Assembly: GCA_963831855.1 (NCBI GenBank)
Contig: CAWHSA010000002.1
Location: forward strand, 248,214-312,213
Direction of reading: 5' to 3'
From: an uncultured Bacteroidales bacterium
GTDB taxonomy: Bacteria > Bacteroidota > Bacteroidia > Bacteroidales > VadinHA17
DNA: 64,000 nucleotides
The notes beneath the pieces were generated by a model, which worked only from the letters and a program-made list of their open reading frames with translations, was not told the origin of the DNA and did not search any database. Both the position numbers and the translations under genes were made by a program. This document shows, one piece after another, positions 482 through 64,000 of this stretch. Each line of letters starts with the position of its first letter. The stretch's first letter is position 1.

Positions 482-3400
482 TTAGAATTTCACATTAATA
501 CCTAAATTGATTATGCGTTGCTGCGGGTAATAAAGGTATCCACCGCTACTTTCGGGATCTGCCCATTTTATTTCTTTAGCCCAGGTAAAAAGGTTATATC
601 CGCTTGCATACACCCGGATATCCTCCAATCCTATTTTCGAAGGTATTCCTTTAGGTAGTGAGTATCCAAATTCCATGCTTTTAAGCCTTATGAATGTAGC
701 ATCAAACAGGAAAAATGTCGAATTTCCCGGTTGAAATGCATCTGCCCGTGGCTTGGTTCCATTTGGATTATCTTTCGTCCAGCGGTCTTTTGCACGTTCA
801 ACAACGGTATTACTAAAATCAGCACCACCCAGAGCTGCAAAATTCCCGTCATAAGTGAAAGCACGGGTTTGTCCCTGGAAAAATAGCGTCAGGTCAAAAT
901 TCTTATATTGAAGTCCCATATTCAATCCGAATACAATTTCAGGTGTATTTGTCAAATCAAACCTGAACTGGTCCTTTGCATTAATTACCCCATCGGTATT
1001 AAGATCGAGAACTTTAACATCGCCAACCTGGGTTCCGTTTTGATGCGGGTAAGCATCCAATTCTGCCTGTGTGTGAAAGATCCCATCGGTTTTATAATAT
1101 AACCCTGCCCCGACCGGATAACCAGTTCGACTTTGATAAGGTTCAGCCGGTGGAGTTTCATCCATAAATATGATTTTACTTCTGGCATAAGCAATATTAC
1201 CTTCAACAGTATAATTCAACTGGCTTATATTATTTCTGTGACGTAATATCAATTCAAAACCATGGTTATCTACTTTCCCAATATTTTCATCCGGCAAGCC
1301 GGAGAAACCTAAAATGGCTGGTATTGAAAGGTTTCTCGCTACAAGAATATTCGATCTTTTTTCCATAAAATAGGTAAATTCCATTCCCAGCAAGCCTTTC
1401 CACAATGATGTTTCCAATCCTATATCGGTTTTTTTGCTTACTTCCCAGGTAATATTTGGATTTGGCATTGTATTGGCATAAATACCAGGAACATCGCTAC
1501 CTCCAAATACATAATTGTTTCCAAATGAATAGGATTGTAAATATTGATATTGTCCTACACGATCGTTACCTATCTCGCCATAGGAAAATCTTAACTTCAA
1601 CTGGTCAACATCGGGAAGAGCGTCCTGAAAGAATTTCTCTTCAGACAAACGCCATCCCAACGAAACTCCGGGGAAGAAGCCATAACGTTTTCCTGCCGGG
1701 AAAATCTGGGAACCATCGTACCGGAACAAAAACTCAACCAGGTATTTTGATTTGAAGTCATAATTTAAACGTCCGAAATAGTTATTGTAAGCTCCCTCTG
1801 ATGCTGAACCTCCATTGTCCTTATCTTCCGGTTTAGTACTTCCCACGTTAATCTGGTCGATGGCAGGACTAACAAAATTTTTCCTGTAAGCACTGGCCCA
1901 GGTGTAAGTATTCTTTTGCTGTTCCTGACCCAACATGGCGGCAATATGGTGAGATCCAAACGTTCTGTCGTAGGCAATTCTGAAGTTATACAACATTGTT
2001 GTCCACTTGCTATATACATCAGTAAGCTCTACAGTTGAGGCGCCCGTTCCCTGTTTCTTGTCATAATTCCCGGTAATTACATTATATTCATAATAGTAAT
2101 AGGGAAGTTGAAATGTTTTTTGAAACTGATTTCTCATGTCATAATTGAATGATGCGTCAAGCTTCAGCCCTTCTACAAAAGGTATTTTATACGTTGCAGT
2201 AAATGTTGAATACAAGGGTGAATCATCGTATTTAAGAGAACCTCTCTGATCCAGTAAAAGCGGACTTTCCCCAAGTCTTCCAGGGGCAATTAGCCCGTTC
2301 GGATATACTGCAGGTAATGTGGGATTGGCTGCTAAAATATTTACGAAATTAACGCCGGTAGCAATATGTGGATATTGTCTTTTATTAATTATTGCATTTA
2401 AATTGGCCGCTATACTTAAATTCTTATTTAAAGCTACGTCAACTTTAACGCGCGCGTTATATTGATTGTAATTTGTAGGATAGTGCTTAAAAGCGCTACC
2501 TTGCTCCAATGATGCAAAAGAAAGCAGGTACTTTACAGCTTCTGTTCCGCCGTTAACAGAAAAACTCACGCGTTGTTCAGGTGAAAAAGGTTTCAAAACT
2601 TCGCTCATCCAATCAGTATTTGGATATAAAATGGGATCGGAACCGTCCCGAAATTTCTGAATAGCCGCGTCGGAATAAAAGGGGATATAATTGACCGGCC
2701 TGCCTTGTCTGTACCAATCTCCTTCATTATATACCTGAGCATAAGCAACTGCATCCAGCATATCAGGAATCTGGGTCGGATGCTGGAAAGCAAAATTGTA
2801 GGATAAACTAAATACAGGCTTACCAAGCTTTCCCGATTTCGTAGTCACAATGATCACTCCATTTGCTGCACGGGCACCGTAAATGGCTGCAGATGCATCT
2901 TTCAAAACAGAAACGCTCTCGATATCTTCAGGATTCAACCTTTCCATATTGTCGCGTTGAACACCATCAATGATAACAAGAGGAGTATTGTCATTTAGCG
3001 TACCTGACCCGCGAATTAATATATTCAGCCCTTCCCTTCCCGGTTCACCCGAACGTTCATTTACAAGTAAACCAGGTAACTTTCCGGTAAGAGAATTGAC
3101 CACATTGGGCTGAGGACTTTTTAATATCTCATTTCCACCAACAGTAGCAATCGATCCTGTTAATGTTTCTTTCTTTTGAACTCCATAACCAACTACAACA
3201 ACTTCTTCCAGTCCTGTAATTACAGGAATCAGGTCCACATCAATAGTTGTTCTGCCCGATACATTTACTTCCCTGGCTGTATATCCGATAAATGAGAATA
3301 CCAACATATCAGACCCGGCAGGAACACCAATTGAATATGTACCATCAACAGATGTTGTAACTCCGGTATTTGTTCCTTTAACCAAAACGGTTGCTCCAAT

Positions 3401-3589
3401 CAGAGGCTCTCCGGTATTAGAGTCCGTGACCTTACCTCTGACCTGTAGTTGCTGCAGGTCAGTTACTCCGGCAGCCATTAACTGCGAAAGGCTTAAAAAG
3501 GCGATAATAAGAGACAGGTTTATGGTTAACAGAAATCTTTTTATTCCCGTTTTTGGCAGCGGGAAATAACATTGAAGATTTTTTTTCAT
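482..3589 (-). CDS. susC: SusC/RagA-family TonB-dependent outer-membrane transporter
   Basis: 1035 aa ORF with ATG at 3587-3589. Carboxypeptidase-regulatory-like N-domain (VRGKVTDSNTGEPLIGATVLVKGTNTGVTTSVDGTYSI). Plug region (EEVVVVGYGVQKKETLTGSIATV; NILIRGSGTLNDNTPLVIIDGV). Long beta-barrel ending ...INLGINVKF with a terminal aromatic. Followed directly by the SusD-like gene. Confidence 0.95.
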   Translation of the reverse strand: MKKNLQCYFPLPKTGIKRFLLTINLSLIIAFLSLSQLMAAGVTDLQQLQVRGKVTDSNTGEPLIGATVLVKGTNTGVTTSVDGTYSIGVPAGSDMLVFSFIGYTAREVNVSGRTTIDVDLIPVITGLEEVVVVGYGVQKKETLTGSIATVGGNEILKSPQPNVVNSLTGKLPGLLVNERSGEPGREGLNILIRGSGTLNDNTPLVIIDGVQRDNMERLNPEDIESVSVLKDASAAIYGARAANGVIIVTTKSGKLGKPVFSLSYNFAFQHPTQIPDMLDAVAYAQVYNEGDWYRQGRPVNYIPFYSDAAIQKFRDGSDPILYPNTDWMSEVLKPFSPEQRVSFSVNGGTEAVKYLLSFASLEQGSAFKHYPTNYNQYNARVKVDVALNKNLSIAANLNAIINKRQYPHIATGVNFVNILAANPTLPAVYPNGLIAPGRLGESPLLLDQRGSLKYDDSPLYSTFTATYKIPFVEGLKLDASFNYDMRNQFQKTFQLPYYYYEYNVITGNYDKKQGTGASTVELTDVYSKWTTMLYNFRIAYDRTFGSHHIAAMLGQEQQKNTYTWASAYRKNFVSPAIDQINVGSTKPEDKDNGGSASEGAYNNYFGRLNYDFKSKYLVEFLFRYDGSQIFPAGKRYGFFPGVSLGWRLSEEKFFQDALPDVDQLKLRFSYGEIGNDRVGQYQYLQSYSFGNNYVFGGSDVPGIYANTMPNPNITWEVSKKTDIGLETSLWKGLLGMEFTYFMEKRSNILVARNLSIPAILGFSGLPDENIGKVDNHGFELILRHRNNISQLNYTVEGNIAYARSKIIFMDETPPAEPYQSRTGYPVGAGLYYKTDGIFHTQAELDAYPHQNGTQVGDVKVLDLNTDGVINAKDQFRFDLTNTPEIVFGLNMGLQYKNFDLTLFFQGQTRAFTYDGNFAALGGADFSNTVVERAKDRWTKDNPNGTKPRADAFQPGNSTFFLFDATFIRLKSMEFGYSLPKGIPSKIGLEDIRVYASGYNLFTWAKEIKWADPESSGGYLYYPQQRIINLGINVKF

Positions 3590-37331: not shown

Positions 37332-38847
37332 CTACTGCCACCCTACCTTTGACATAGGAATACTTTCATAGAAAGAATCAGGGTTTATACCCTGTCGCAC
37401 TATTTTTATATCTTCCCCTACACTGGTTGCAAAACTAATGAGATAACCGGTGAGGTCTTCAGTCTTTACCCCGTTCCTGTAAAGAGATATGGTTTTCCCG
37501 GGCCATGGGTTTCTTATCCTGCATGTCCCTCCAGGCTGTGAGTTTATCTCTAAAAAGCTTACTTCGCTGTTCTTTACGGAAGACGAAACCAAAAATCCGC
37601 CTTTTGCAAGAAGCTTGAAGTATGCAGGTTTATTTTTATCCCATGCAGGGAATACTCTTATAACAGGATCTCCTCCCGGCGTTGCAGATATACTCTGCAT
37701 AAGTCCATCCTGCAGCCCTGCACTTAAAATGCCATATCCTCCAAATTCTGCCCAGTCGGATGTGACAAAACCAAGACGGTTTGTACTACTTCCTACTTTA
37801 CTATTTATTTCACTATTAAGATTGTTTAATACAATATTGAACTCACTTCGTCCAAGTGCTGCAGCATCAAGCAGAAATCTACTAAGGTTGGAACCGTAAT
37901 CGCCCAATGACAAGTTCGTGTTATACGCGACGTTAGCTTCAAAAGAATTATTGGCAATCGCCCAATCTCCACCTTCCAGTCCCTGGTCTTTGGTCTCAAG
38001 GGTCAATATATCATAGTTTTCAAGCATCCGCAAACGAGGACTTTGAGGCTCTTTTTCAATAGCGTCATATCTCACTTGCGCTGCCGGGGTTCTGGCCTGT
38101 CCCCAGGTTGTATAGCCAAGGGGATGTGTAATTGAACCGATAGTATTCGGCTGTCCGCTCATCGGGTAAGATGCGAGGTTATCAACTATATCCTGCTGCC
38201 GAAGGCTGCTCAAATATCTGCTTCAACCTTATTTGTCTGCCGCTATTGCTTGTTTTAGTAGTAGCTGTATGAGTACCGATTACTTCATCCGGATCCTTCA
38301 GCATAACAAGGTCAATATTGATGGAAGACGGGTAAGATCTGTTATCATTGATTTCTAAGACAAATACATCCGAGTTCGTATCACCGATTAATTCAACATT
38401 CACTCCATTACCCTGAATTACCAATTTACCATCATACAGGGAAAGGTGCTGACTTGTTGAAGATGTTAATGGATTGCCTCCCAGGTTCACAATAAGAAAT
38501 CCACAGCCATAACCGTTATCATTATGTCCGTCCAATGAACCTGTAGCTGCACTGTTCCAGCCAAAAACATCAACACGATTAATCTGGAGGTTTAATGAAT
38601 GGTCATTATTGCTCCAGACAAGGCTGCCCATACTGCCGGTTCCCATCGGCATTCCATGACGAGAAGTTGTTATAATACCTGTATGAAGTACATCCCCGGA
38701 AGATACCAATTGCTGGTAATTCATACTTATAATTGGAGTCGACAAAACACCATTTACTATGGTACAACCGGTTGCCATAATAAATAGAGAAGATATAAGT
38801 ATAGACGTCAAAATAAATGTTCTGTCTTTTTTGGATTTCTTAAACAT
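37332..38847 (-). pseudogene. GH95-like protein split into two overlapping ORFs (38182-38847 and 37332-38213) and lacking the GH95 catalytic signature
   Basis: The N-ORF has a lipoprotein-like signal (LFIMATGC) and GMPMGTGSMGSLVWSNNDHSLNLQINRVDVFGWNS, which parallels [14 protein letters not shown]...[10 protein letters not shown] of the intact GH95s. The C-ORF has YGILSAGLQDGLMQSISATPGGDPVIRVFPAWDKNKPAYFKLLAKGGFLVSS, which parallels [22 protein letters not shown]...[10 protein letters not shown]. The two frames overlap by 32 nt, and the second frame opens immediately after a TGA, which is consistent with a 1-nt indel. The joined length is about 510 aa versus about 800. No NINxQMNYWP motif is present. 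Confidence 0.55.
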
Positions 38848-48651: not shown

Positions 48652-49845
<1,194 letters not shown>

Positions 49846-49915
49846 TTATACGATAGATTAGTTTCCGTACCAGGATTCAACTTGGTGGTTATTGAATAAT
49901 ACATTATCTGTTTAG

Positions 49916-51844
<1,929 letters not shown>

Positions 51845-52073
51845 TTATTTATTGATATGTGCTTTACGCTTTTGGCTATTACACCTTGTAGACTTTGTGT
51901 TTAAGAATGAATCATTGTCAGAATATAAAATGAAATCGATTCCCGGGAAGCAAAGGAAAAAGATGGTTCATATGCTCCAGCCGGTACCGGTATATCATCT
52001 TCCTGTCCCAAACAAACAAAGTTAGTTTGGAAGAATACGACAGCTTATCAGGAAGCATTACATTTCCAAAACC

Positions 52074-53354
52074 TTATTTATCCCGAAATAAAAGTTGAGC
52101 AAAGCCAAACAGGCTCTTGCGCCAGGTTTGAAATTCATGTGCAGTTCCGGGAGCTTCGTAATAAACATTATTTATACCAGCTTTATCAAGAGATTCGTGG
52201 ATGGTGCGACCAGTGTTTGCACCTTCTTTGGAACCCATACTAATATAGAAAACTTTTACCTGTTTATTAAACTCAGCCGGTTTAGCCAGCAGACCGTTAT
52301 AGCCGGTTTCAACACCCGGAAAACCAAAAGGAGCGCTGAAAATACCAATGTTGGCAAATTTATCAAGGTTGGCCTGGGTAATCTGGTAAGTCTGGGTACC
52401 ACCTAATGAAAGTCCAGCCATTGCGCGATGGTCGCGGTCAGTAAGAGTTCGGAAAGAGGCGTCGATTGTGGGTATAAGGTCTGAAATAATTACTTTGCCA
52501 AAACCGTCCCAGAAAGAGGGCATACCTCCGGGGCCTTGTCCCGGAGCTCTGTTCCCACCCTGTCCGGGGGCTCTGTTGGCACCTTGTCCTGGTGCCTGGG
52601 CAGGTTGTCCTTGATTTTGACCCGCACCACCCTGTGCGGGAGCACCCTGACCGGGAGCACTACGGCGGGCACCCCCCATTCCGGCAGCAATACCACCATC
52701 TTCCATCACAATTATCATGGGTAAGGCTTTTCCCTCCGCGATCAGGTTATCGAGAATAAAATTGGCGCGGCCCTGATTTGACCAGGCACGGCGGTCTTCA
52801 CCCATGCCATGCTGCAGATAGATCACCGGATAGCGTTTTTTGAGATCTTTATCGTATCCCGGAGGAGTGTAGATGTAAGCATGACGGTTTTCACCTGTTG
52901 AGGCAGCATAATACCAGAAAGAATGGACATCACCGTGGGGCACATTTTTAACGTCATAAAAATCAACCCCTTCTTCCGGAATTTCCATCCCGCTCATAAC
53001 TTTTCCAGCTCCGAAAAACGACTCACTGGCGGGATCTGCAACGTCAACGCCATCAATTTTCAGAGTATAATAATGGAACCCCGGATCCTGAGGCTGGGTA
53101 ATCCCATCCCAGAAACCGTCTTCACCTTTCGTAAGTGCAACTCTCCCAAGACTTACTGTAATGCTTTGTGCTTCAGGGGCCCGCATATGGAAAATAACCC
53201 TGCGCTGTGCATCAACACGTGGATATTCAGCTCCAACGATGTTTGTAGATGCCGGTTTTGAATCGGCCGGAGGTGGTACTGTCTGTAATGTCTGTGCCTT
53301 ACATAGAGTACCAGCAAAACAAAGCAGAAACAAATAGATTATTGATTTTCTCAT
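52074..53354 (-). CDS. CBM48-like + CE1-type esterase, array paralog 1, with P/A/G/Q-rich insertion
   Basis: 426 aa with a signal peptide. [37 protein letters not shown]. Insertion GGARRSAPGQGAPAQGGAGQNQGQPAQAPGQGANRAPGQGGNRAPGQGPGGMPS (about nt 52515-52694). AGLSLGG. GTAHEFQTWR. Confidence 0.8.
   Translation of the reverse strand: MRKSIIYLFLLCFAGTLCKAQTLQTVPPPADSKPASTNIVGAEYPRVDAQRRVIFHMRAPEAQSITVSLGRVALTKGEDGFWDGITQPQDPGFHYYTLKIDGVDVADPASESFFGAGKVMSGMEIPEEGVDFYDVKNVPHGDVHSFWYYAASTGENRHAYIYTPPGYDKDLKKRYPVIYLQHGMGEDRRAWSNQGRANFILDNLIAEGKALPMIIVMEDGGIAAGMGGARRSAPGQGAPAQGGAGQNQGQPAQAPGQGANRAPGQGGNRAPGQGPGGMPSFWDGFGKVIISDLIPTIDASFRTLTDRDHRAMAGLSLGGTQTYQITQANLDKFANIGIFSAPFGFPGVETGYNGLLAKPAEFNKQVKVFYISMGSKEGANTGRTIHESLDKAGINNVYYEAPGTAHEFQTWRKSLFGFAQLLFRDK
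52534..52605 (-). repeat. Three in-frame tandem copies of a 24-nt unit (8 codons, G-N/A-R-A-P-G-Q-G) inside paralog 1
   Basis: Plus-strand units are ccttgtcccggagctctgttccca (52534-52557), ccctgtccgggggctctgttggca (52558-52581) and ccttgtcctggtgcctgggcaggt (52582-52605). Confidence 0.7.
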
Positions 53355-53376
53355 TTAATCTGTATATATGTGAATG

Positions 53377-54564
<1,188 letters not shown>

Positions 54565-54570
54565 TTAATA

Positions 54571-54578
54571 ACCTCCTT
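54571..54578 (-). promoter_or_regulatory. Shine-Dalgarno-like AAGGAGGT 7 nt upstream of the paralog-2 ATG
   Basis: The plus strand reads acctcctt at 54571-54578, so the mRNA reads TTAAGGAGGTTATTAA-AUG (ATG at 54562-54564). Confidence 0.45.
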
Positions 54579-54638
54579 AAATGATTATATTAAAAATCTC
54601 TATAAACAAAAAGTAATCTGATTTATTCATCCAGAAGA

Positions 54639-55901
<1,263 letters not shown>

Positions 55902-55936
55902 TTAAAGTTTTTTAATTATTTAATTGATACCATTTT

Positions 55937-57259
<1,323 letters not shown>

Positions 57260-57271
57260 TCAGAGTGATAT

Positions 57272-58522
57272 TCAGTTTTTAAAGAGCAGTAAAGCAAATT
57301 CCTTCAGACTGCGTCTCCATGACTGAAATTCGTGTGCAGTAAGCGGAGAAACATAAGAGACGCTCTTTATACCGGCCTGATTCAGCGCATCTGCGGCTGC
57401 TTTGAGACCATCGGCGCCACGTTCGCGGCTGCCATAGCTCATAAATACCAGTCTGACCTTGGTTTTGTCAGTAATGCTTTCAGGAGCAATGGTACCGCCG
57501 CTGAATAATCCGATATGGGAGAATTTGTCGAGATTGGCCAGAGTAACAGTCCTGGTTTGCATTGCACCCATTGAAAGGCCGGCCATTGCACGGTTCTTCT
57601 GATCGGATAGTGTACGGAATGTTTTATCCACCCATGGTATCAGATCAGTAGTCATAAGCTGGCCATAGATTCCACCTCCGGGGCCACCCATACCGAACAT
57701 ACCACCCGGGCGCGCTGCACCGGCAGGAGCACCGGCAGGGGGAGCACCGGCAGGGGGAGCGCCGGCACCAGGAGCGCCGGCAGCGGGAGCAGCCGGACGG
57801 GGAGCCGGTGGTCCAGGAACAATTGAACGGGAAGCGCCAACTGCACTGGTTTCCATAACAACAATAAATGGTGTTATTTTTCCTTCTGCGATCAGGTTGT
57901 CAAGTATTAAATTGGTACGTCCCATTTCAATCCAAACCCTTTCATCTTCACCGCCGCCATGCTGAAGATAGAGCACCGGGTAACGTTTTTTAGTACTTAT
58001 ATCATAATCCGGAGGGGTGTAAATGAAAATATGACGCCATGATTTTGCCACCGTTGAATAGTAGTTCCTTATCAGTACATTTCCATGCGGCACATCTTTT
58101 AACTCATAAAATCCGCCATCGGGATCAGGTATCTCAAATCCATTGCACATATGACTATAGCCAATAAATGCGTTGGTAGCCGGATCAACTACGATAGCTC
58201 CATCAACAATCATCCAGTAATTGTGATAACCTAAATCCTGCGGTTCACTGGTGTAAGTCCAGACCCCATTCTCTTCTTTGGTCATATCAAAGGGAACGTT
58301 GACTATTGAGACCTGAACTTTCTGTGCATTCGGTGCATAGATTTTAAATGTCACCCTTCTGTCGGCTTCAATCCTCGGGAATTGATTACCGTACAGGTTG
58401 TAGGGCGAAGGACGCACTGAATCAACAACATTGAAGTTGTTGGAAGCCTGTCCTGACTGGGCTAAACAGACTCCACTAACTGACATGACAATCAGTAAAA
58501 TAGAAAATAATGTTTTTTTCAT
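57272..58522 (-). CDS. CBM48-like + CE1-type esterase, array paralog 5, with P/A/G-rich insertion
   Basis: 416 aa with a signal peptide. [38 protein letters not shown]. Insertion SRSIVPGPPAPRPAAPAAGAPGAGAPPAGAPPAGAPAGAARPGGMFGMGGPGGG (about nt 57671-57847). AGLSMGA. LTAHEFQSWRR. Confidence 0.8.
   Translation of the reverse strand: MKKTLFSILLIVMSVSGVCLAQSGQASNNFNVVDSVRPSPYNLYGNQFPRIEADRRVTFKIYAPNAQKVQVSIVNVPFDMTKEENGVWTYTSEPQDLGYHNYWMIVDGAIVVDPATNAFIGYSHMCNGFEIPDPDGGFYELKDVPHGNVLIRNYYSTVAKSWRHIFIYTPPDYDISTKKRYPVLYLQHGGGEDERVWIEMGRTNLILDNLIAEGKITPFIVVMETSAVGASRSIVPGPPAPRPAAPAAGAPGAGAPPAGAPPAGAPAGAARPGGMFGMGGPGGGIYGQLMTTDLIPWVDKTFRTLSDQKNRAMAGLSMGAMQTRTVTLANLDKFSHIGLFSGGTIAPESITDKTKVRLVFMSYGSRERGADGLKAAADALNQAGIKSVSYVSPLTAHEFQSWRRSLKEFALLLFKN
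57726..57800 (-). repeat. Five in-frame tandem copies (two identical, three degenerate) of a 15-nt unit (5 codons, PPAGA-like) inside paralog 5
   Basis: The plus strand reads ggagcaccggcaggg at 57726-57740 and again, identical, at 57741-57755. Then follow ggagcgccggcacca, ggagcgccggcagcg and ggagcagccggacgg. Confidence 0.8.
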
Positions 58523-58528
58523 TTCAAG

Positions 58529-58536
58529 ACCTCCTA
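58529..58536 (-). promoter_or_regulatory. Shine-Dalgarno-like TAGGAGGT 7 nt upstream of the paralog-5 ATG
   Basis: The plus strand reads acctccta at 58529-58536, so the mRNA reads AACTTAGGAGGTCTTGAA-AUG (ATG at 58520-58522). The spacing is the same as at paralog 2. Confidence 0.45.
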
Positions 58537-58875
58537 AGTTAATTAATGATAGAGTTTTTAATTTAAATTCTATGGTAATTATTATTCAATCCTTAAAAAG
58601 AAGCAGTAAGAACTCCTTAGTGCAACTAAATATACCGACCTAATTACAGATTGCTATTTATAAATTTATCTTAAAATTTTCAATAAGTGTGGAACTAAAA
58701 TTAATAAAAGTGAGGGAAGACTAAATATTTAAAATTGGTGATTGAAAATTAAAATAAAAGATTGAAGACTTGGTTTACGGTCCATTAATTTAAATTAAGT
58801 TTGACGATGAAAGTGAAAAGATCGAAAGCGAATAATAGTGCCCGATACCGCTAATGAGGTTACACGTTAAGTAAC

Positions 58876-59961
58876 CTACCGGTAAACGGTAAACTTCCCG
58901 TTCTTATAACAGGTCACTCCATTATCGGTCCCGATCCATATAACATCTTTTTTGTCGACAGAAATCGAAAGAATGTTATTGCTGGCAAGCCCGTTGACTG
59001 CTTTATAAGTCGTCAAGATTGTCCCGTCAAATATCGATAATCCGTTCCTCGTTCCGAGGTATATATTCCCTTTTGAATCTGAACTGATAGCCTGAACATT
59101 ATCATCTGCCAGTCCCTGCGCTGTGGTAAATACAGTCCAGCCTTCAAGTGTTTTATAACCTGAATGCCTGGCCACTCCCCTTTTAGTGCCGATCCACTGC
59201 GTTCCGTCAGCGGTGAGATGAACACTGTAAACAGTATCGGAAGGCATAAGGATGGGCCCCCAGGCCGCATATTCCGAAGCTCCGGAAACAGCATCAACAT
59301 CATTCCTGAATACCCTGAGGACACCTCCGCCAAGTGTTCCGATATAAAGAGAATCGCCATCTAAACTGGTTGCCATCGACGTGATAGGATAATCCTGGAA
59401 AATACCCTCCGGGTAAGTTCTTGTATAGCTGTTGGTTAGCCAATTCCTGCTTTTAAATGCGGAGATCCCCTTATCGGTTCCAAACCATCTCAGCTCCTTT
59501 TTCCCAACTGCGACTGCCAGCACATTTTCGCTAACGATTTTGGAGTTATCAGGATAATATGTGGTGGCACCCGATCTTGCATCGACCGGAAGAGATACAA
59601 CAGTTGCACCTTGCGAAGTACCTATCCAAAGTTCCGGTCCATAAGAAGAAGAGTCAAATACCACACTCTTCAGGCCGGTGGCAGCTACCTTACGGTTCTT
59701 GTTATGCACCGTCCATTTTGCTCCGTCGAAACTGACAATTCCCGATTCAGTAAGGAACCATACCGTATTATCCTTATCAATGGTTGATGAATAGAACTTT
59801 TTAGCGCTGATCCCCTCTCCAAATGACTGCTCTGATCCGGCAGTCTGAGCGTTAAGAACAAGGGTGAACAGACCTGTCATTAAAGAGGTAATCAGTAATG
59901 CATTTATCCTGGCAGTTATCCTGACTTTAAGGACCTTAATCATCGGATTACCTGAGTACAT
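58876..59961 (-). CDS. Secreted stand-alone beta-propeller of the two-component-regulator-propeller (Reg_prop) type
   Basis: 361 aa; the start is the ATG at 59961 or 59943. Signal peptide ...LITSLMTGLFTLVLNAQ. Repeated blades of about 45 aa carry the Reg_prop pattern: NTVWFLTESGIVSFDGAKWTV, ELWIGTSQGATVV, LRWFGTDKGISAFKSRNW, SLYIGTLGGGVLRV, TQWIGTKRGVARH, DNVQAISSDSKGNIYLGTRNGLSIFDG, NNILSISVDKKDVIWIGTDNGVTCYKNGKF. No Y_Y_Y, kinase, receiver or HTH part is present. Confidence 0.7.
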   Translation of the reverse strand: MYSGNPMIKVLKVRITARINALLITSLMTGLFTLVLNAQTAGSEQSFGEGISAKKFYSSTIDKDNTVWFLTESGIVSFDGAKWTVHNKNRKVAATGLKSVVFDSSSYGPELWIGTSQGATVVSLPVDARSGATTYYPDNSKIVSENVLAVAVGKKELRWFGTDKGISAFKSRNWLTNSYTRTYPEGIFQDYPITSMATSLDGDSLYIGTLGGGVLRVFRNDVDAVSGASEYAAWGPILMPSDTVYSVHLTADGTQWIGTKRGVARHSGYKTLEGWTVFTTAQGLADDNVQAISSDSKGNIYLGTRNGLSIFDGTILTTYKAVNGLASNNILSISVDKKDVIWIGTDNGVTCYKNGKFTVYR

Positions 59962-60041
59962 TTTTTGTATAGTTTGGTTTAATTGATCTTATAAAAATGA
60001 AAGATATGACACTCCTCCTCCTCATTACTATGAACCAGGTT

Positions 60042-61796
60042 TTAATTCCTCTTTTTCACACTCTTAACAAGAGCTTCCGGTACAGATACAAGTTCTATAC
60101 CATTCCCGGTTCCAAGATTCCGTGAATACTGCTTATCTACCGGGTCGTTCCAATGTTCGTGAACACCAAGGACAGGTATCGGCTTACCGCTGTTATCCGG
60201 GTCATAAACAATTCCCTGCGGCCAGTTGGCGGCGTCGGCAGCCTGATGCATGTAATCATCAACGCCAAACATATTGGGTATAGCTTCCCATCCATTATTT
60301 ACAGCATCATGTTTATGAACTCCGTCAAACTCTGACCTCAGGAAGTCGAAACCAACCGATTCTATCGCTACAGGATCAAGTGACATGAATATGGAGTTAC
60401 TCCAGCTGTTATTAAACGGAGGCATCAGATATTTTACAGGACCCTTTATTTCACTTGAACCTCCTCCGAACATTCCTTCAACACACCATAAAACTGAGTT
60501 TTGCCCGAGGTATTTGCTTCCCATAAGATCTACGAAAACCCTGTATTTATGGTAGCCTGTGTTAGTAGCAGTACCTTCTCTCCTGTTGGCAACATGTGAA
60601 TAATGAAGATGGCCTGCACCGTTTCTTCCTATATTCCCGAAATTAAGCTTTGCTGTCAATGAAACTCCCGCAGCTCCATGAGGCTTAAGAACTGCCATAT
60701 AGATCAAATAATCAGCATTTTCAAGAATATCATAAAGTTTGTCAGTAATGGTTTTATCGGAGTAGAACACAAGCGGCTTTTCTGTCATTTTGATAAGAGT
60801 ACGCCCAAATGTTGTTGAACCTCTGTCTATATATTTAACATTTGGGAATTCTTTTACCCACACATTATAATTATGAGCATAGATCGGATTCATAGGGTCC
60901 CCTACAGCTATGTCTGCCTGATCAATCCCGCATTCATTAACAAGTTCCTTCAGCAATTCAAGCACAACGTAGGGACCATTTTCAGTAGGTTCCATGCTTG
61001 CCCTCCTGCTGTCTTTTTCAGGGAGTGATTTAGGAAGTGCATAACCATTCTCTTTATCAGCTTTGCTCAGGGTCCAGCCTGCCTGTCCCTGGTTTATCTT
61101 AATGAAAATCTTTTCTCCTTTTGTATATCCTGTGGTTTTACCATGTTTCTTTTCATTGAAAAACCTGAACATTGCATCCCAGGCTTTAGCAGTCGTATTT
61201 TTACCGGTAAGTTTAAGAACTCCGTCGCGGAACATCTTGCCCTGGACCGTTCCATTATTGTTTTCCGGATTTGCAAACCAGTCGCCTTTATCAGGATCAT
61301 TATGTTCAAACTTTTCATTCGTTGCATCCGGATTCCATACCCACACTACCCGTCCGGGGAATATACCCTTTGCCTCACCGAAAGGCTGGTTTGGTCCATC
61401 TTCAGGTCCTGTCCTTGTCTCTGTTGTCTGAAATAATGACTCAGTATTATTGACCGGGATTACTGCCATAGCTACTATAACTCCCGCCAGAAGCATCATC
61501 GTAGCTCCTAATCTCACATTTATTATTTTACGCTTCGACCTCCTTGATATCGCAGTCAGTCCGGCAACTGCCAGAAGATAAGTAACAAATCCCGACATAA
61601 ATGGTGCTGCCACTCTCATACATGGATAGGTGGCCCTCGATGGTTTTGGAATTACCCTTATCAGAAACCATATCGTTGAAGCAATACCCATTAAAAAAAA
61701 TATCAGCTTATATGGCAGACGATGTCTTAAAAGCCAGTCTCTCATTTGTCCTAACTTACCTTTTAACCTGGAAATATCAAATTTCATTTGCTGCAT
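60042..61796 (-). CDS. Membrane-anchored DUF362-like protein of unknown function
   Basis: 584 aa. N-terminal TM segments (LIFFLMGIASTIWFLI; FVTYLLAVAGLTAI; LGATMMLLAGVIVAMAV) flank a conserved-looking KPSRATYPCMRVAAPF motif. The body has the DUF362 pattern as I recall it: IFIKINQG..., PYVVLELLKELVNECGIDQADIAVGD, YLIYMAVLKPHGAAGVSLTAKLNFG, MSLDPVAIESVGFDFL. The family call is from memory of motifs. Confidence 0.5.
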   Translation of the reverse strand: MQQMKFDISRLKGKLGQMRDWLLRHRLPYKLIFFLMGIASTIWFLIRVIPKPSRATYPCMRVAAPFMSGFVTYLLAVAGLTAISRRSKRKIINVRLGATMMLLAGVIVAMAVIPVNNTESLFQTTETRTGPEDGPNQPFGEAKGIFPGRVVWVWNPDATNEKFEHNDPDKGDWFANPENNNGTVQGKMFRDGVLKLTGKNTTAKAWDAMFRFFNEKKHGKTTGYTKGEKIFIKINQGQAGWTLSKADKENGYALPKSLPEKDSRRASMEPTENGPYVVLELLKELVNECGIDQADIAVGDPMNPIYAHNYNVWVKEFPNVKYIDRGSTTFGRTLIKMTEKPLVFYSDKTITDKLYDILENADYLIYMAVLKPHGAAGVSLTAKLNFGNIGRNGAGHLHYSHVANRREGTATNTGYHKYRVFVDLMGSKYLGQNSVLWCVEGMFGGGSSEIKGPVKYLMPPFNNSWSNSIFMSLDPVAIESVGFDFLRSEFDGVHKHDAVNNGWEAIPNMFGVDDYMHQAADAANWPQGIVYDPDNSGKPIPVLGVHEHWNDPVDKQYSRNLGTGNGIELVSVPEALVKSVKKRN

Positions 61797-61956
61797 GATA
61801 TGCTATCCTTTAAGGTTTAATATTGCAAGATTAAAAATGTTCTGATAAACCTGATTGCTAAAAAAAAAATTTAAGATTCATTAACTTCTTTATTGTTCAG
61901 GTAACCGAAAATCTAAAGTAAATGCAAGAAAAATAAAAGTAAGAATCCTTATTGTG

Positions 61957-62754
61957 TCAATTGTCAGTGAATTCCAGCAATCCAAAACGTGAAGGCTGAT
62001 GAACATCTTTCCTTATATCATATATCGGAAAGAGAGTAGACGTTGAACGGAATCTGTCATCCACAAAATTCCTGTCCTGCCTGACTGCCTGGAATGCCCA
62101 TCTTACCCCGGCTTTTGGACGGTAAATATTTTGAAAATCACTAAATACCGCAAATGGAATTGCAAATTCCATTCGCCACATCTTATCCTTGTCTTTGTCA
62201 TTATTTATTGTTCCCTCATAGGTTACCTCAACTTTATAAACCGGGTTATAGCCCCTGATAAAGATAGTTCTGTTATTATAATACCTCCAAAGTACAATAT
62301 AGTCATATGCAGCTTTTGTTATATTAATTTCAAATCCAAAGTGCATATACAGGCTGTCTGGAACAGGAACACAAAAGAATTCCGCACAATCGTCCAGATA
62401 AGGCCGGGCGTCAAAATTCTTTTCGCGTGCGGTAAGCGAAGTGTCTTCACATTCGTAAAATAAATAGAGATTAACATCATCCCACATCATTCTGAATTTG
62501 GAATTCTGTTTCTCAACAGGCTTATCACCCCTGTAGAAATAATTGAATGACTGTACTTCTGCATTCTTCCAGGATGGTTCATCCATTTTACCATCTACTA
62601 TAACAGGCTCCCTGGCTCTTGAAACTTTATAAACCGGTTGTTGTCCTATTACGAGTTGTTTTTCAGCCTGGGAGAAGAGGGGCATTTCCGCAGAAAGAAA
62701 TATTATAACAGCAAAGGTTGTTAGTCTCAGCTGGTTAATAAATGAATGTTTCAT
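61957..62754 (-). CDS. Secreted CBM9-like / DOMON-like carbohydrate-binding-family-9 domain protein
   Basis: 265 aa with a signal peptide. REPVIVDGKMDEPSWKNAEVQSFNYFYRG...FRMMWDDVNLYLFYECEDTSL...DDCAEFFCVP...WRMEFAIPFAVF...VRWAFQAVRQDR is the pattern of CBM9_1-type (DOMON-clan) domains. Confidence 0.6.
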   Translation of the reverse strand: MKHSFINQLRLTTFAVIIFLSAEMPLFSQAEKQLVIGQQPVYKVSRAREPVIVDGKMDEPSWKNAEVQSFNYFYRGDKPVEKQNSKFRMMWDDVNLYLFYECEDTSLTAREKNFDARPYLDDCAEFFCVPVPDSLYMHFGFEINITKAAYDYIVLWRYYNNRTIFIRGYNPVYKVEVTYEGTINNDKDKDKMWRMEFAIPFAVFSDFQNIYRPKAGVRWAFQAVRQDRNFVDDRFRSTSTLFPIYDIRKDVHQPSRFGLLEFTDN

Positions 62755-62868
62755 TGCCAGAGATTAGTTTAAATAATGACCAAATTTATAAAATTCCGGA
62801 CATAAAGATTATTTAAAGTAAATATCTGTTAATTTTAAAAATTCAAAAGATTAATAAAGCCCTGATCA

Positions 62869-64000
62869 ATGAAAACCAGTTTAAAAAATTCTTTCTTTGC
62901 GGCAATTCTACTATGCTTAACCTTAATTTCCTGCACAGAAAAACCGGCACCCGAATCACTTCCCAGAAGCGTTCCGGAAGCTGAGGGAGTTTCATCAAAA
63001 GCTATAATAACTTTCCTCGACTCTGCTGCAACAAGCAACCAGGAGTTCCATAGTTTTATGTTTCTCAGGCATGGCAAGGTTGTTGCCGAGGGCTGGTGGA
63101 ATCCTTTCCGTCCTGATTTGAAGCACACTCTGTACTCAGCCAGTAAAAGCTTTACATCCACGGCAATAGGCCTGGCGATTAAAGAAAAAAGGCTAAGTAT
63201 CGATGATAAGGTAATTTCATTCTTTCCTGAATCCTTACCTGATACGGTAAGTCCCTTTTTAGCAGAGCTTAAAATAAAGGATCTGCTGTCCATGTCAACA
63301 GGACAAAGGCGTGAATCTTCAACAATGACAGCCGGTTGGGTTAAAGCATATCTGGAGACGCCGGTTACTATTGAACCAGGAACAATATACCGGTACAGTT
63401 CAATGGCCTCTTTTATGTTATCAGCTATAGTCCAGAAAGTAACCGGTGAAAAAGTAATAGACTACCTTACTCCAAGGTTATTTAATCCCCTGGGAATAGA
63501 AGGAGCTGACTGGGAAACAAATCCGGACGGAATAAATACAGGTGGTTGGGGATTGAGACTGAAGACAGAAGATCTGGCAAAGTTCGGACAGTTCTATCTT
63601 CAGAAGGGCAATTGGAACGGGAAACAAATTCTTCCGGAAAAATGGGTTGAAGAAGCTACCTCTCTTAAAATATATCAGAATCCCGATATTTCACTGTCTA
63701 AAAGAGATTCCTCAAATGATTCTATGCAGGGATACTGCTACCAGTTCTGGCGTGCCCGGCATAATTCATATATGGCCAACGGAGCCTTTGGCCAGTTTAT
63801 ACTGATAATGCCCGATAAAGATGCGGTAGTAATATTTACTGCAGAATCTTCAGATATGTGGGGTGAACTGGACATGGTATGGAAGTATCTCTATCCGGGT
63901 ATCAGGGATGAAAAATTGCCGGAAGATGAAAAGTCCGTTGCAGAAATGAAGCAAAAATTAGCATCTCTTGCTCTGGCATTTCCAGCAAAGAGCAATAATG
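62869..64000 (+). CDS. Beta-lactamase-family serine hydrolase (class C/PBP4*-like), lipoprotein, 3' end outside window
   Basis: Absent from the ORF track because it has no stop in the window. My translation from ATG 62869 reads MKTSLKNSFFAAILLCLTLISCTEKPAPE...FMFLRHGKVVAEGWWNPFRPDLKHTLYSASKSFTSTAIGLAIKE...IYRYSSMASFMLSAIVQKVTGEKVIDYL.... The SxxK motif is SASK. The overlapping minus ORF 62835-63293 is a shadow ORF. Confidence 0.8.
   Translation, partial: MKTSLKNSFFAAILLCLTLISCTEKPAPESLPRSVPEAEGVSSKAIITFLDSAATSNQEFHSFMFLRHGKVVAEGWWNPFRPDLKHTLYSASKSFTSTAIGLAIKEKRLSIDDKVISFFPESLPDTVSPFLAELKIKDLLSMSTGQRRESSTMTAGWVKAYLETPVTIEPGTIYRYSSMASFMLSAIVQKVTGEKVIDYLTPRLFNPLGIEGADWETNPDGINTGGWGLRLKTEDLAKFGQFYLQKGNWNGKQILPEKWVEEATSLKIYQNPDISLSKRDSSNDSMQGYCYQFWRARHNSYMANGAFGQFILIMPDKDAVVIFTAESSDMWGELDMVWKYLYPGIRDEKLPEDEKSVAEMKQKLASLALAFPAKSNN

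Follow-up and report, generated by a model that had tools for sequence, protein, structure and literature searches.

The Pfam family DUF362 (PF04015), whose canonical members are often fused to 4Fe-4S ferredoxin domains, shares clan CL0471 with the N-terminal domain of LarA (PMC11770544). The LarA superfamily comprises the nickel-pincer nucleotide enzymes, namely lactate, malate and 2-hydroxy-acid racemases and gluconate 2-epimerases. Proteins combining DUF362 with carbohydrate-binding module (CBM) family 9 and dockerin have been known from lignocellulose metagenomes since 2017, with no function assigned (PMC5742341), and Reg_prop seven-blade propellers are found in the sensors of Bacteroides hybrid two-component systems (HTCS; 3v9f, 4a2l, 3ott). 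Here we analyse three neighbouring genes that bring these families together, encoding a CBM9-like protein, a DUF362-like protein and a Reg_prop propeller, in a stretch of 64,000 nucleotides (the window) from contig CAWHSA010000002.1 of an uncultured Bacteroidales bacterium.

Our analysis points to a core of two of these genes. The DUF362-like protein and the propeller very probably form a functional carbohydrate-active unit. That this core is a two-part extracytoplasmic carbohydrate-processing unit, in which an exported enzyme acts on acidic sugar units, we regard as an even chance, and the narrower assignment of a substrate with a carboxyl-bearing sugar unit and of an acid-base class of chemistry is more tentative. 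In the best-supported reading, the DUF362-like protein would be the catalytic component and the propeller its glycan-binding partner; catalysis, substrate class and chemistry are read from sequence and from a predicted structure.

An earlier note on this DNA had described three same-strand genes for envelope proteins, with a CBM9_1 domain, a DUF362 body preceded by transmembrane segments and a seven-blade Reg_prop propeller, lacking any obvious catalytic motif of carbohydrate-active enzymes (CAZymes) and not resembling a classical glycosidase set. This description holds. All three genes lie on the minus strand, exactly where it had placed them (Table 1), the domains are recovered by Pfam, hydropathy and blade motifs, all three proteins are predicted to be extracytoplasmic and no known catalytic CAZyme family in Pfam or NCBIfam matches any of them. 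The families are uncharacterised and functionally linked, as described in the following section.

A conserved pair of DUF362-like protein and propeller

A scan of one genome per species yielded 79 loci, all of them in metagenome-assembled genomes (MAGs) of Bacteroidales or other Bacteroidota; neighbourhood counts below cover 80 loci and pairing counts cover 87 family genes with room downstream. The propeller is the next same-strand gene for 21 of the 87 DUF362-like genes and is fused to the body in one open reading frame (ORF) for 18, and hence the two are adjacent or fused in 39 cases. Across the loci, the propeller occurs in 41, a PF00756 esterase in 13, and a CBM9-like gene and a beta-lactamase-family gene in 8 each. 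The first three long contigs examined all carry a Reg_prop gene of about 350 aa directly after the DUF362-like gene, with CBM9-like and beta-lactamase-family genes within a few kb in variable order and strand. When the sampling was started from the propeller, a DUF362-like gene lay directly upstream in two of three contexts. When it was started from the CBM9-like protein, no DUF362-like gene lay within 8 kb in any of three contexts, two of which were situated among PF00756 esterases and genes of glycoside hydrolase (GH) families GH10 and GH51 and carbohydrate esterase (CE) family CE15. The conserved unit is the DUF362-like gene with the propeller, and there is no fixed three-gene module; the co-occurrence of three families, for which the earlier note had proposed a survey, is borne out for the pair and not for the CBM9-like gene.

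That three unrelated genes have come to lie fortuitously beside each other and beside the esterases is hardly credible. The CBM9-like gene, which varies in position and strand and usually occurs without a DUF362-like gene, would fit such an explanation, as would the spacers of 160 and 353 bp that permit independent transcription, but it is contradicted for the pair by the adjacency or fusion seen across many MAGs, and both partner domains are fused to the body elsewhere.

These fusions are evident in the larger relatives, and most of the best 150 DUF362-like representatives are longer than the window protein. Among 53 long representatives, Pfam identifies Por_Secre_tail in 32, CBM9_1 in 11 and Reg_prop in 6, along with immunoglobulin-like (Ig), PKD and fn3 domains, dockerin, CBM6/35, malectin and Laminin_G_3; CBM9_1 is the CBM fused most often to the DUF362-like body. 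In P0121 and P0134 the DUF362-like N-terminus and body are followed by Reg_prop, both Pfam domains being present in each. The body is followed by CBM9_1 and a type IX secretion sorting domain in P0131, by three copies of CBM9_1 in P0219, by CBM6/35 in P0133, by malectin, PKD, CBM6, Calx-beta and CBM4_9 in P0172, by PA14 and dockerin in P0175 and by an NHL/SGL-type propeller in P0232. Since Reg_prop and CBM9_1 are both found in such fusions, the two partner families of the window are domains of one polypeptide elsewhere. The overall architecture, as far as domain composition indicates, is that of a secreted carbohydrate-active enzyme.

The DUF362 match of the 584-aa protein (E 3.9e-8, 34 bits, cut-off 24) spans only residues 322-483, on model positions 58-199, and all 53 long relatives scanned match the same Pfam family. 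More than 4,500 homologues were found, many of which share 70-95% identity with the window protein along their whole length, N-terminal helices included. When the representatives of 50%-identity clusters were searched exhaustively, 2,236 relatives passed E <= 1e-3 and 660 of them E <= 1e-30, and up to seven paralogues are present in a single MAG. A first structure model, from 34 close homologues, reached a pLDDT of 61.8 and was discarded; the final AlphaFold model of the body, built from an alignment of 61 diverse members, has a pLDDT of 89.6. Comparison of this model with the Protein Data Bank (PDB) by Foldseek, which the earlier note had also proposed, returned only LarA-superfamily enzymes as top matches and no closer structure, albeit with weak E-values. 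The best match is the malate racemase Mar2 (7s91; E 5e-3, probability 0.99), and the others are LarA (5huq, 6c1w and 8ezf), the LarA homologues 9q3j and 9q3k, and 4nar.

For comparison at the level of residues, a LarA query of 425 residues with 100% identity to 5huq was aligned with two relatives; hhalign numbering on this query runs one higher than the published LarA numbering. A single stretch was aligned, body residues 353-383 on query residues 155-185 (E 0.14), and this weak alignment sets H373 on LarA His174 and K383 on Lys184. Both residues are invariant or nearly so in the DUF362-like family. In LarA, His174 is a catalytic histidine, Lys184 tethers the nickel-pincer cofactor and His200 is a nickel ligand (PMC11770544). 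H398, located 15 residues past K383, may be the counterpart of His200, going by its spacing alone. The conserved residues of the body are K233, N235, D300, K371, H373, K383, H398, D474, D484, E547, H548 and W549, and its polar residues are invariant across members sharing 34-48% identity. Neither Lar_N (DUF2088) nor LarA_C matches the DUF362-like protein in Pfam or NCBIfam. Searches of the PDB by phmmer and with the family profile found no LarA, the hits being noise and C-terminal domains of the type IX secretion system (T9SS), which stemmed from the extensions of the relatives. On the evidence of the model, the body is probably a distant LarA-fold relative with an active-site-like residue set, and it is not a member of the LarA family.

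LarA-type genes are present in the lineage, as seen in a related Bacteroidales MAG in which a LarA homologue with Lar_N and LarA_C, split into two ORFs (L085:3461-4728), is located a few kb from a CBM9-like gene.

The residue set and the fold bear directly on whether the body is an enzyme at all. It is conceivable that the three proteins, in the manner of surface glycan-binding proteins, only hold plant-fibre fragments at the envelope for neighbouring esterases and glycosidases, given that two of the three are recognisable binding modules, that Pfam and NCBIfam reveal no known catalytic motif and that fusions within the family involve many binding and Ig-like domains. We consider such a non-catalytic, scaffolding role improbable: the invariant K, N, D, H and E residues are typical of active sites and persist at 34-48% identity, the body is predicted to fold like the members of an enzyme superfamily, CBMs are as a rule attached to catalytic modules, and in some loci with SusC and SusD the body is the sole candidate enzyme among the immediate flanks.

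The N-terminal region of the DUF362-like protein contains three hydrophobic helices by hydropathy, at about residues 30-50, 62-84 and 90-118. The N-terminal tail contains eight Lys or Arg residues and the loop from helix 2 to helix 3 another six, while helix 3 is followed by an acidic stretch; this charge distribution predicts a cytoplasmic N-terminus and a DUF362 body outside the cytoplasm. The loop of the hairpin formed by the first two helices is invariant at W43, R47, K51-P52, R54, Y57-P58-C59 and P65 in the 61 diverse members, which share only 34-48% identity with the window protein, and KPxRxxYPC is found in 133 of 150 representatives. This loop is better conserved than the enzyme-like body, and it has no match in Pfam, NCBIfam or the PDB. 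Helix 3 shows a basic n-region, a hydrophobic core and, in most relatives, a signal peptidase I-type site, the column after the helix being Ala in 44 of 61 members and position -3 mostly Ala, Ser or Val. Paralogues with a plain signal of the general secretory (Sec) pathway (L029:14450-15895 and one in L053) align at helix 3, and a few members (P0199, P0223) carry signals of the twin-arginine translocation (Tat) type. The hairpin coexists with type IX sorting domains in the same proteins, which implies release from the membrane in those proteins; Por_Secre_tail of Pfam is absent from the window protein.

Two other export signals were considered for the window protein and rejected, a lipoprotein signal at Cys59 because no lipobox follows helix 1, and a Tat signal because the twin-arginine consensus is missing. 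It seems plausible that the hairpin and the signal-peptide-like third helix insert the protein into the inner membrane with the body facing the periplasm, and that in many relatives the signal peptidase site of helix 3 and the type IX sorting domain lead to release of the body and its display at the cell surface. The placement of a hairpin before a cleavable signal-like helix, even in type IX cargo, could represent a new device for maturation or sorting.

The 361-aa propeller matches Reg_prop of Pfam (E 2.4e-15) and contains seven [WY][IFL][GL]TxxG repeats 41-50 residues apart, which is suggestive of seven blades. A single N-terminal hydrophobic segment in its hydropathy profile is consistent with a signal peptide. 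Its matches to the propellers of HTCS sensors range from 1e-26 to 1e-12 in E-value (3v9f, E 1.6e-26; 4a2l, E 2e-24). It consists of Reg_prop repeats only, and a complete HTCS is encoded by a separate gene in relatives. The PorZ model NF052228 of NCBIfam gives 45 bits against a cut-off of 260.

The homology to HTCS sensor domains raises the possibility that the propeller and the DUF362-like protein, the latter anchored in the membrane, detect a breakdown product and regulate the locus; sensing had also been contemplated in the earlier note. An HTCS gene is indeed found a few kb away in close relatives, and the DUF362-like protein is predicted to be membrane-anchored in the window. Such a role is very improbable. 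On the cytoplasmic side the DUF362-like protein has a tail of just 30 residues and no output domain, and the relatives carry type IX sorting domains, dockerins and CBMs, as is expected for secreted proteins. The presence of up to seven paralogues per genome also speaks against it, and the identity between the propeller and the neighbouring HTCS is low, about 36% in a short aligned stretch.

The same low identity led us to reject a recent duplication of the propeller from that HTCS. P0272 (355 aa), which is 100% identical to the propeller, begins at Met7 of the window ORF, and the start codon may be at 59943 rather than 59961. At L084:5930-8401 a propeller homologue of 63% identity follows a cupin and a metallo-beta-lactamase (MBL)-fold hydrolase, with no DUF362-like gene, in a locus that is otherwise parallel (PfkB, zinc-dependent alcohol dehydrogenase (Zn-ADH), heparinase II/III-like lyase, GH88, UxuA and HTCS). 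This suggests that the propeller can serve different catalytic partners.

Gene neighbourhoods and the proposed function

All ORFs of the 80 loci were clustered and the cluster representatives annotated. An MR_MLE dehydratase, whose representative passes the galactonate dehydratase model (335 against 311 bits), is present in 35 loci, SusC in 24 and a SusD-type gene in about 19, the latter two often directly adjoining the DUF362-like gene. An RraA-like aldolase occurs in 18 loci, an SBF-family transporter in 17, UxuA in 15 and CE15-GH88 fusion proteins in 10. Other recurrent neighbours are PfkB kinases, SGL and 6-phosphogluconolactonase-like lactonases, Zn-ADH, GFO/IDH/MocA and ECF-sigma/FecR genes. 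Several arrangements recur on one strand, among them SusC-SusD-RraA-DUF362-propeller-MR_MLE and CE15/GH88 (on the opposite strand)-cupin-DUF362::propeller-SusC-SusD-RraA-MR_MLE. The genes immediately flanking the pair in some SusC/SusD loci include no recognised GH or polysaccharide lyase, and in L003 a GH127 gene lies about 5 kb downstream of the pair. In a high-G+C organism without SusC/SusD, the DUF362-like gene follows an ABC sugar-uptake system, with AXE1-like, GFO/IDH/MocA, xylose-isomerase-like TIM-barrel and GH10 genes nearby. The family-wide association is with glycan uptake and sugar-acid catabolism and not with esterases. Only in the closest relatives (13 of 80 loci) is there a link to esterase arrays, so that the connection drawn by the earlier note applies there, while SusC/SusD and sugar-acid genes are the partners of the family at large.

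Two kinds of protein recur in these neighbourhoods. L044:6784-9111 and nine other loci encode a 775-aa protein that joins a CE15 glucuronoyl esterase to a region whose GH88-type match is weak and below threshold, and this protein is repeatedly found beside fusions of DUF362 and propeller. In L018, L022, L023, L027, L030 and L031, the DUF362-like genes have as neighbours arrays of up to five paralogues of a protein of about 550 aa (e.g. L023:568-2244), whose match to the BT3328 hyaluronan endo-lyase family is no more than weak (44 bits).

Because the LarA pocket binds 2-hydroxy acids and the neighbouring genes metabolise sugar acids, we infer a carboxyl-bearing sugar as the substrate. The body would bind a uronic or aldonic acid unit, either free or as an ester, that stands at the end of an oligosaccharide from the plant cell wall or is borne on one of its side chains. 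The binding site would be homologous to the pocket in which LarA accommodates 2-hydroxy acids. His373, Lys383 and His398 could perform acid-base chemistry beside the carboxylate, be it elimination, epimerisation or hydrolysis of an ester or lactone. The propeller, being of the kind with which hybrid two-component sensors bind oligosaccharides, would serve as the glycan-binding partner, and the stand-alone CBM9-like protein may be an accessory binder of xylan or glucan chain ends. The freed sugar acid would be taken up and degraded through the SBF-transporter, galactonate-type dehydratase, UxuA, 2-keto-3-deoxygluconate (KDG) kinase and RraA-type aldolase.

Several observations weigh against this proposal. 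The links to LarA are statistically weak (Foldseek E 5e-3 to 0.1; hhalign E 0.14), and the phosphate-binding SDxTRP motif (Arg75) and the second catalytic histidine (His108) of LarA are without counterparts, the equivalent strand ends of the body, by strand order, carrying K233-x-N235 and G299-D300-P301. An adjoining propeller is missing for 48 of the 87 family genes, and the partner is therefore facultative; in the third of the contexts reached by way of the propeller, the upstream position is taken not by a DUF362-like gene but by genes for an MBL-fold hydrolase and a cupin. The window subfamily has Gln at -1 after helix 3, a non-canonical cleavage site, which makes cleavage there uncertain. 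The sugar-acid genes could reflect the target glycan of each locus and not the product of the DUF362-like protein, and the trio of the window has no adjacent sugar-acid genes, its neighbours being esterases and a beta-lactamase-family hydrolase. Full-text searches of the literature yielded no functional study of DUF362 or of the subfamily. Lastly, the Tat signals and a periplasmic [FeFe]-hydrogenase in three operons fit a cofactor-bearing redox enzyme better.

These operons (L029, L032 and L053) consist of a DUF362-like gene, the propeller, a Tat-exported [FeFe]-hydrogenase (Table 1) and a second DUF362-like gene of the Sec type. The hydrogenase contains the H-cluster motifs TSCCPxW, PCxxKxxE and CxxGCxxG. 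A periplasmic hydrogenase in a glycan-type operon of Bacteroidales is unusual.

A redox function, also entertained in the earlier note, is a serious rival to this proposal. The DUF362-like protein could be an exported enzyme of hydride or electron transfer that contains a pincer cofactor of the LarA type, or some other metal centre, and that oxidises, reduces or epimerises sugar ends, for example converting a reducing end to an aldonolactone. Electrons might be exchanged with the membrane through the Cys-containing hairpin, or with the periplasmic hydrogenase. We think this unlikely, with evidence on both sides. The LarA clan and fold, the His and Lys counterparts and the hydride-transfer chemistry of the clan agree with it, as does the description of DUF362 in iron-sulphur proteins, yet the equivalents of LarA Arg75 and His108 are absent. 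Tat-type signals occur in P0199 and P0223, whereas 133 of 150 representatives have the hairpin and a Sec-like helix and no Tat signal, and export of an unfolded chain by Sec is at odds with a cofactor made and loaded in the cytoplasm. The Tat-exported hydrogenase between the propeller and the second DUF362-like gene also counts in its favour, but the link represents a single orthologous locus in three MAGs, and type IX surface display offers an anaerobe no obvious electron acceptor. Lactonases and an aldonate dehydratase at many loci are what a C1-oxidation product would need; any oxidation step could nevertheless be carried out by the products of nearby GFO/IDH/MocA, Zn-ADH and short-chain dehydrogenase/reductase (SDR) genes. 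The frequent fusion to CBM9, whose characterised members favour reducing ends, a weak DoxX-like N-terminus in P0211 and the LarA homologue of one related MAG add to the case for redox chemistry. Nickel-pincer enzymes acting on sugars have lately been found outside the LarA fold, in a 2026 discovery paper that concerns aldo-keto reductases and not DUF362 (PMC13524815).

It is quite doubtful that the exported DUF362-like proteins as a whole are an unrecognised group of extracytoplasmic LarA-clan hydride-transfer or redox enzymes on plant-glycan sugars, matured by or connected through the hairpin and in some cases coupled to hydrogenase. If they were, this class would be the anaerobe's counterpart of cellobiose dehydrogenase on a lactate-racemase fold, and would reveal an extracellular redox step in anaerobic fibre degradation.

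An exported enzyme acting on acidic sugar units remains our preferred reading for the pair. Glycan-utilisation loci still hold many genes of unknown function, and the DUF362-like family, being large and present in multiple copies, combines the domain make-up expected of a secreted carbohydrate-active enzyme with a predicted fold that has so far been seen only in nickel-pincer racemases. If catalytic, it would constitute a new enzyme class in the turnover of plant fibre and acidic sugars by wetland, soil and gut Bacteroidota, and would provide the first function for DUF362. A LarA-type cofactor or redox centre outside the cytoplasm would bear on the question of which non-LarA enzymes use nickel-pincer chemistry.

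The CBM9-like protein and the layout of the window

The CBM9-like protein matches CBM9_1 (E 3e-9, 37.5 bits, cut-off 23.4) and CBM9_2 (26.7 bits, cut-off 25) of Pfam, and has a single N-terminal hydrophobic segment by hydropathy, consistent with a signal peptide. It also matches CkCBM9.3 (7nwn; E 1.7e-4). Characterised CBM9 modules favour reducing ends and hold the sugar in an aromatic clamp, formed by Trp71/Trp175 in TmCBM9-2 and Tyr89/Trp191 in CkCBM9.3. Tyr119 of the window protein is aligned to the clamp residue Tyr89 of CkCBM9.3, and the alignment stops before the second clamp residue. Of 476 homologues, the best 120 are all stand-alone proteins of 256-275 aa, and the window protein, likewise, is not appended to an enzyme. 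As its matches are confined to sugar-binding CBM9 families, the haem-binding role known in the DOMON clan, as the earlier note had pointed out, finds no supporting match and was rejected; nothing points to haem, and the clamp tyrosine is kept. In the best-supported reading, the protein would play an accessory part by binding the chain ends of xylan or glucan. Its gene goes mainly with the xylan/esterase gene set.

At L086:8001-12205, two tandem CBM9-like genes are situated beside a B12-binding/S-methyltransferase/Met_synt_B12 triad, within a locus of esterase, GH51, GH95 and GH140-like genes. This triad possibly encodes a corrinoid O-demethylase with a link to the breakdown of fibre.

The remainder of the window forms an extensive cluster for the degradation of plant glycans, encoding GH95, GH29, GH97, GH3, GH31, GH2, GH127, GH140-like, GH43, GH5 and SASA proteins, a carboxylesterase, a LacI-type regulator and a SusC-like protein. 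The SusC-like gene (482-3589) is the sole one in the window and lies 55 kb from the trio. The coordinates of the trio and of related features are presented in Table 1.

Table 1. Coordinates of the three genes, their parts and adjoining features in the window, and of the hydrogenase genes in related loci
Feature	Position	Strand	Basis or remark
CBM9-like protein, secreted, stand-alone, 265 aa	61957-62754	minus	Pfam CBM9_1, CBM9_2
DUF362-like protein, 584 aa, probable catalytic component	60042-61796	minus	Pfam DUF362
N-terminal membrane hairpin of the DUF362-like protein, aa 27-84	61545-61718	minus	Hydropathy
Third hydrophobic, signal-peptide-like helix of the DUF362-like protein, aa 90-118	61443-61529	minus	Hydropathy, alignment
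Predicted extracytoplasmic DUF362/LarA-fold body, aa 130-584	60045-61409	minus	Predicted model, Foldseek, conserved residues
K371-P-H373 ... K383 ... H396-L-H398-Y-S-H401 motif	60594-60686	minus	hhalign against LarA, weak
Reg_prop propeller, secreted, seven-blade, 361 aa	58876-59961	minus	Pfam, seven blade motifs
AT-rich spacer from propeller gene to esterase array, 353 bp, 27.5% G+C	58523-58875
Array of seven PF00756 (feruloyl/xylan-esterase-like) genes, context only	48652-58522	minus	Pfam
Divergent beta-lactamase-family (serine hydrolase) lipoprotein gene, cut by window end	62869-64000	plus
Divergent intergenic region, 114 bp	62755-62868		Carries TAAATTTG -7 motif, 62781-62788, minus
Tat-signal [FeFe]-hydrogenase	L029:12934-14394; L032:13076-14536; L053:2823-4283		Three H-cluster motifs, ferredoxin-like domain

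The intergenic gaps along the trio and into the esterases are 160, 80 and 353 bp. The start codon of the CBM9-like gene is preceded, at a distance of 27-34 nt, by a Bacteroidetes-type -7 motif, TAAATTTG, which is the sole minus-strand occurrence of TAnnTTTG in the intergenic regions of the trio; as TAnnTTTG is not enriched over chance in the window, it is weak evidence for a promoter. Scans of the window for sigma-70 promoters and terminators gave no signal above chance, and neither a terminator-like hairpin nor TAnnTTTG was found on the minus strand of the 353-bp spacer. The trio does head the esterase array by position, as the earlier note had put it, although the 353-bp spacer separates the two, and in relatives the array is often split from the pair by opposite-strand genes.

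The divergent beta-lactamase-family gene has an open plus-strand frame with a lipoprotein-type N-terminus in translation. In L001, L002 and the P0330 contig, a PF00144 gene is found at the corresponding place, likewise in divergent orientation, and counterparts of 70-82% identity were found in related loci by tblastn; the gene is a conserved neighbour in the closest relatives. The esterase array shows a partial NCBIfam match to a model for bifunctional xylanase/feruloyl esterases. Its five genes of about 400 aa (52074-58522) each contain a low-complexity insert of 40-70 aa rich in Pro, Ala, Gly and Gln inside PF00756, coinciding with a local rise in G+C to 0.47-0.49. This run is closed by a 638-aa protein with two tandem PF00756 domains (49916-51832), after which one more PF00756 gene follows (48652-49830). 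Further away, two overlapping ORFs (37332-38213 and 38182-38847) carry a DUF5703_N piece and a GH95_C-like match that is weak and below threshold; together they could be a single gene, frameshifted or degraded.

Comparison with known systems

Cellobiose dehydrogenase and membrane-bound glucose dehydrogenase combine a catalytic domain with a partner of the DOMON/CBM9 fold or with a propeller. Both act on reducing sugars outside the cytoplasm and yield lactones or aldonic acids, and the bacterial pyrroloquinoline quinone (PQQ) enzyme is anchored in the membrane. They are analogies only, as neither is akin to the DUF362-like protein in sequence or fold and no flavin, haem or PQQ signature was found in the DUF362-like system; the analogy holds only under the redox reading.

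The LarA superfamily is closer. Besides the common clan, it provides the sole structural matches to the model and an aligned K-x-H ... K segment, and its homologues acting on sugar acids such as gluconate/mannonate fit the sugar-acid neighbourhood of the DUF362-like genes. The DUF362-like protein differs in that it has no Lar_N match and no equivalents of Arg75 and His108, and in that it is predicted to be exported while LarA is cytoplasmic; its family moreover has the membrane hairpin, CBMs, propellers and type IX secretion domains. Canonical DUF362 proteins are matched by the same Pfam model, and are set apart by the large insertions, the C-terminal extension, the lack of an Fe-S domain, the extracytoplasmic location and the carbohydrate-binding partners of the family described here.

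The HTCS sensors of Bacteroides and the window protein have the Reg_prop seven-blade propeller in common, but the latter is single and without the Y_Y_Y, transmembrane, kinase, receiver and AraC domains. PorZ is a weak match far under its cut-off. The CBM9 domains of xylanases (TmCBM9-2, CkCBM9.3) are modules of enzymes, whereas the window protein stands alone with the Tyr89 position kept.

The DUF362-CBM9-dockerin proteins of beaver and moose enrichments, together with S4XJL8 of Sorangium, unite the same two families in a plant-fibre setting (PMC5742341). In those proteins the domains are part of one polypeptide on a cellulosome-type scaffold; in the window they are products of separate Bacteroidales genes, to which a propeller is added. 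Recent nickel-pincer work covers LarA homologues and aldo-keto reductases. What is new here is a candidate enzyme of glycan loci that is accompanied by binding partners, carries a conserved membrane hairpin and would be built on a fold so far not tied to glycan processing.

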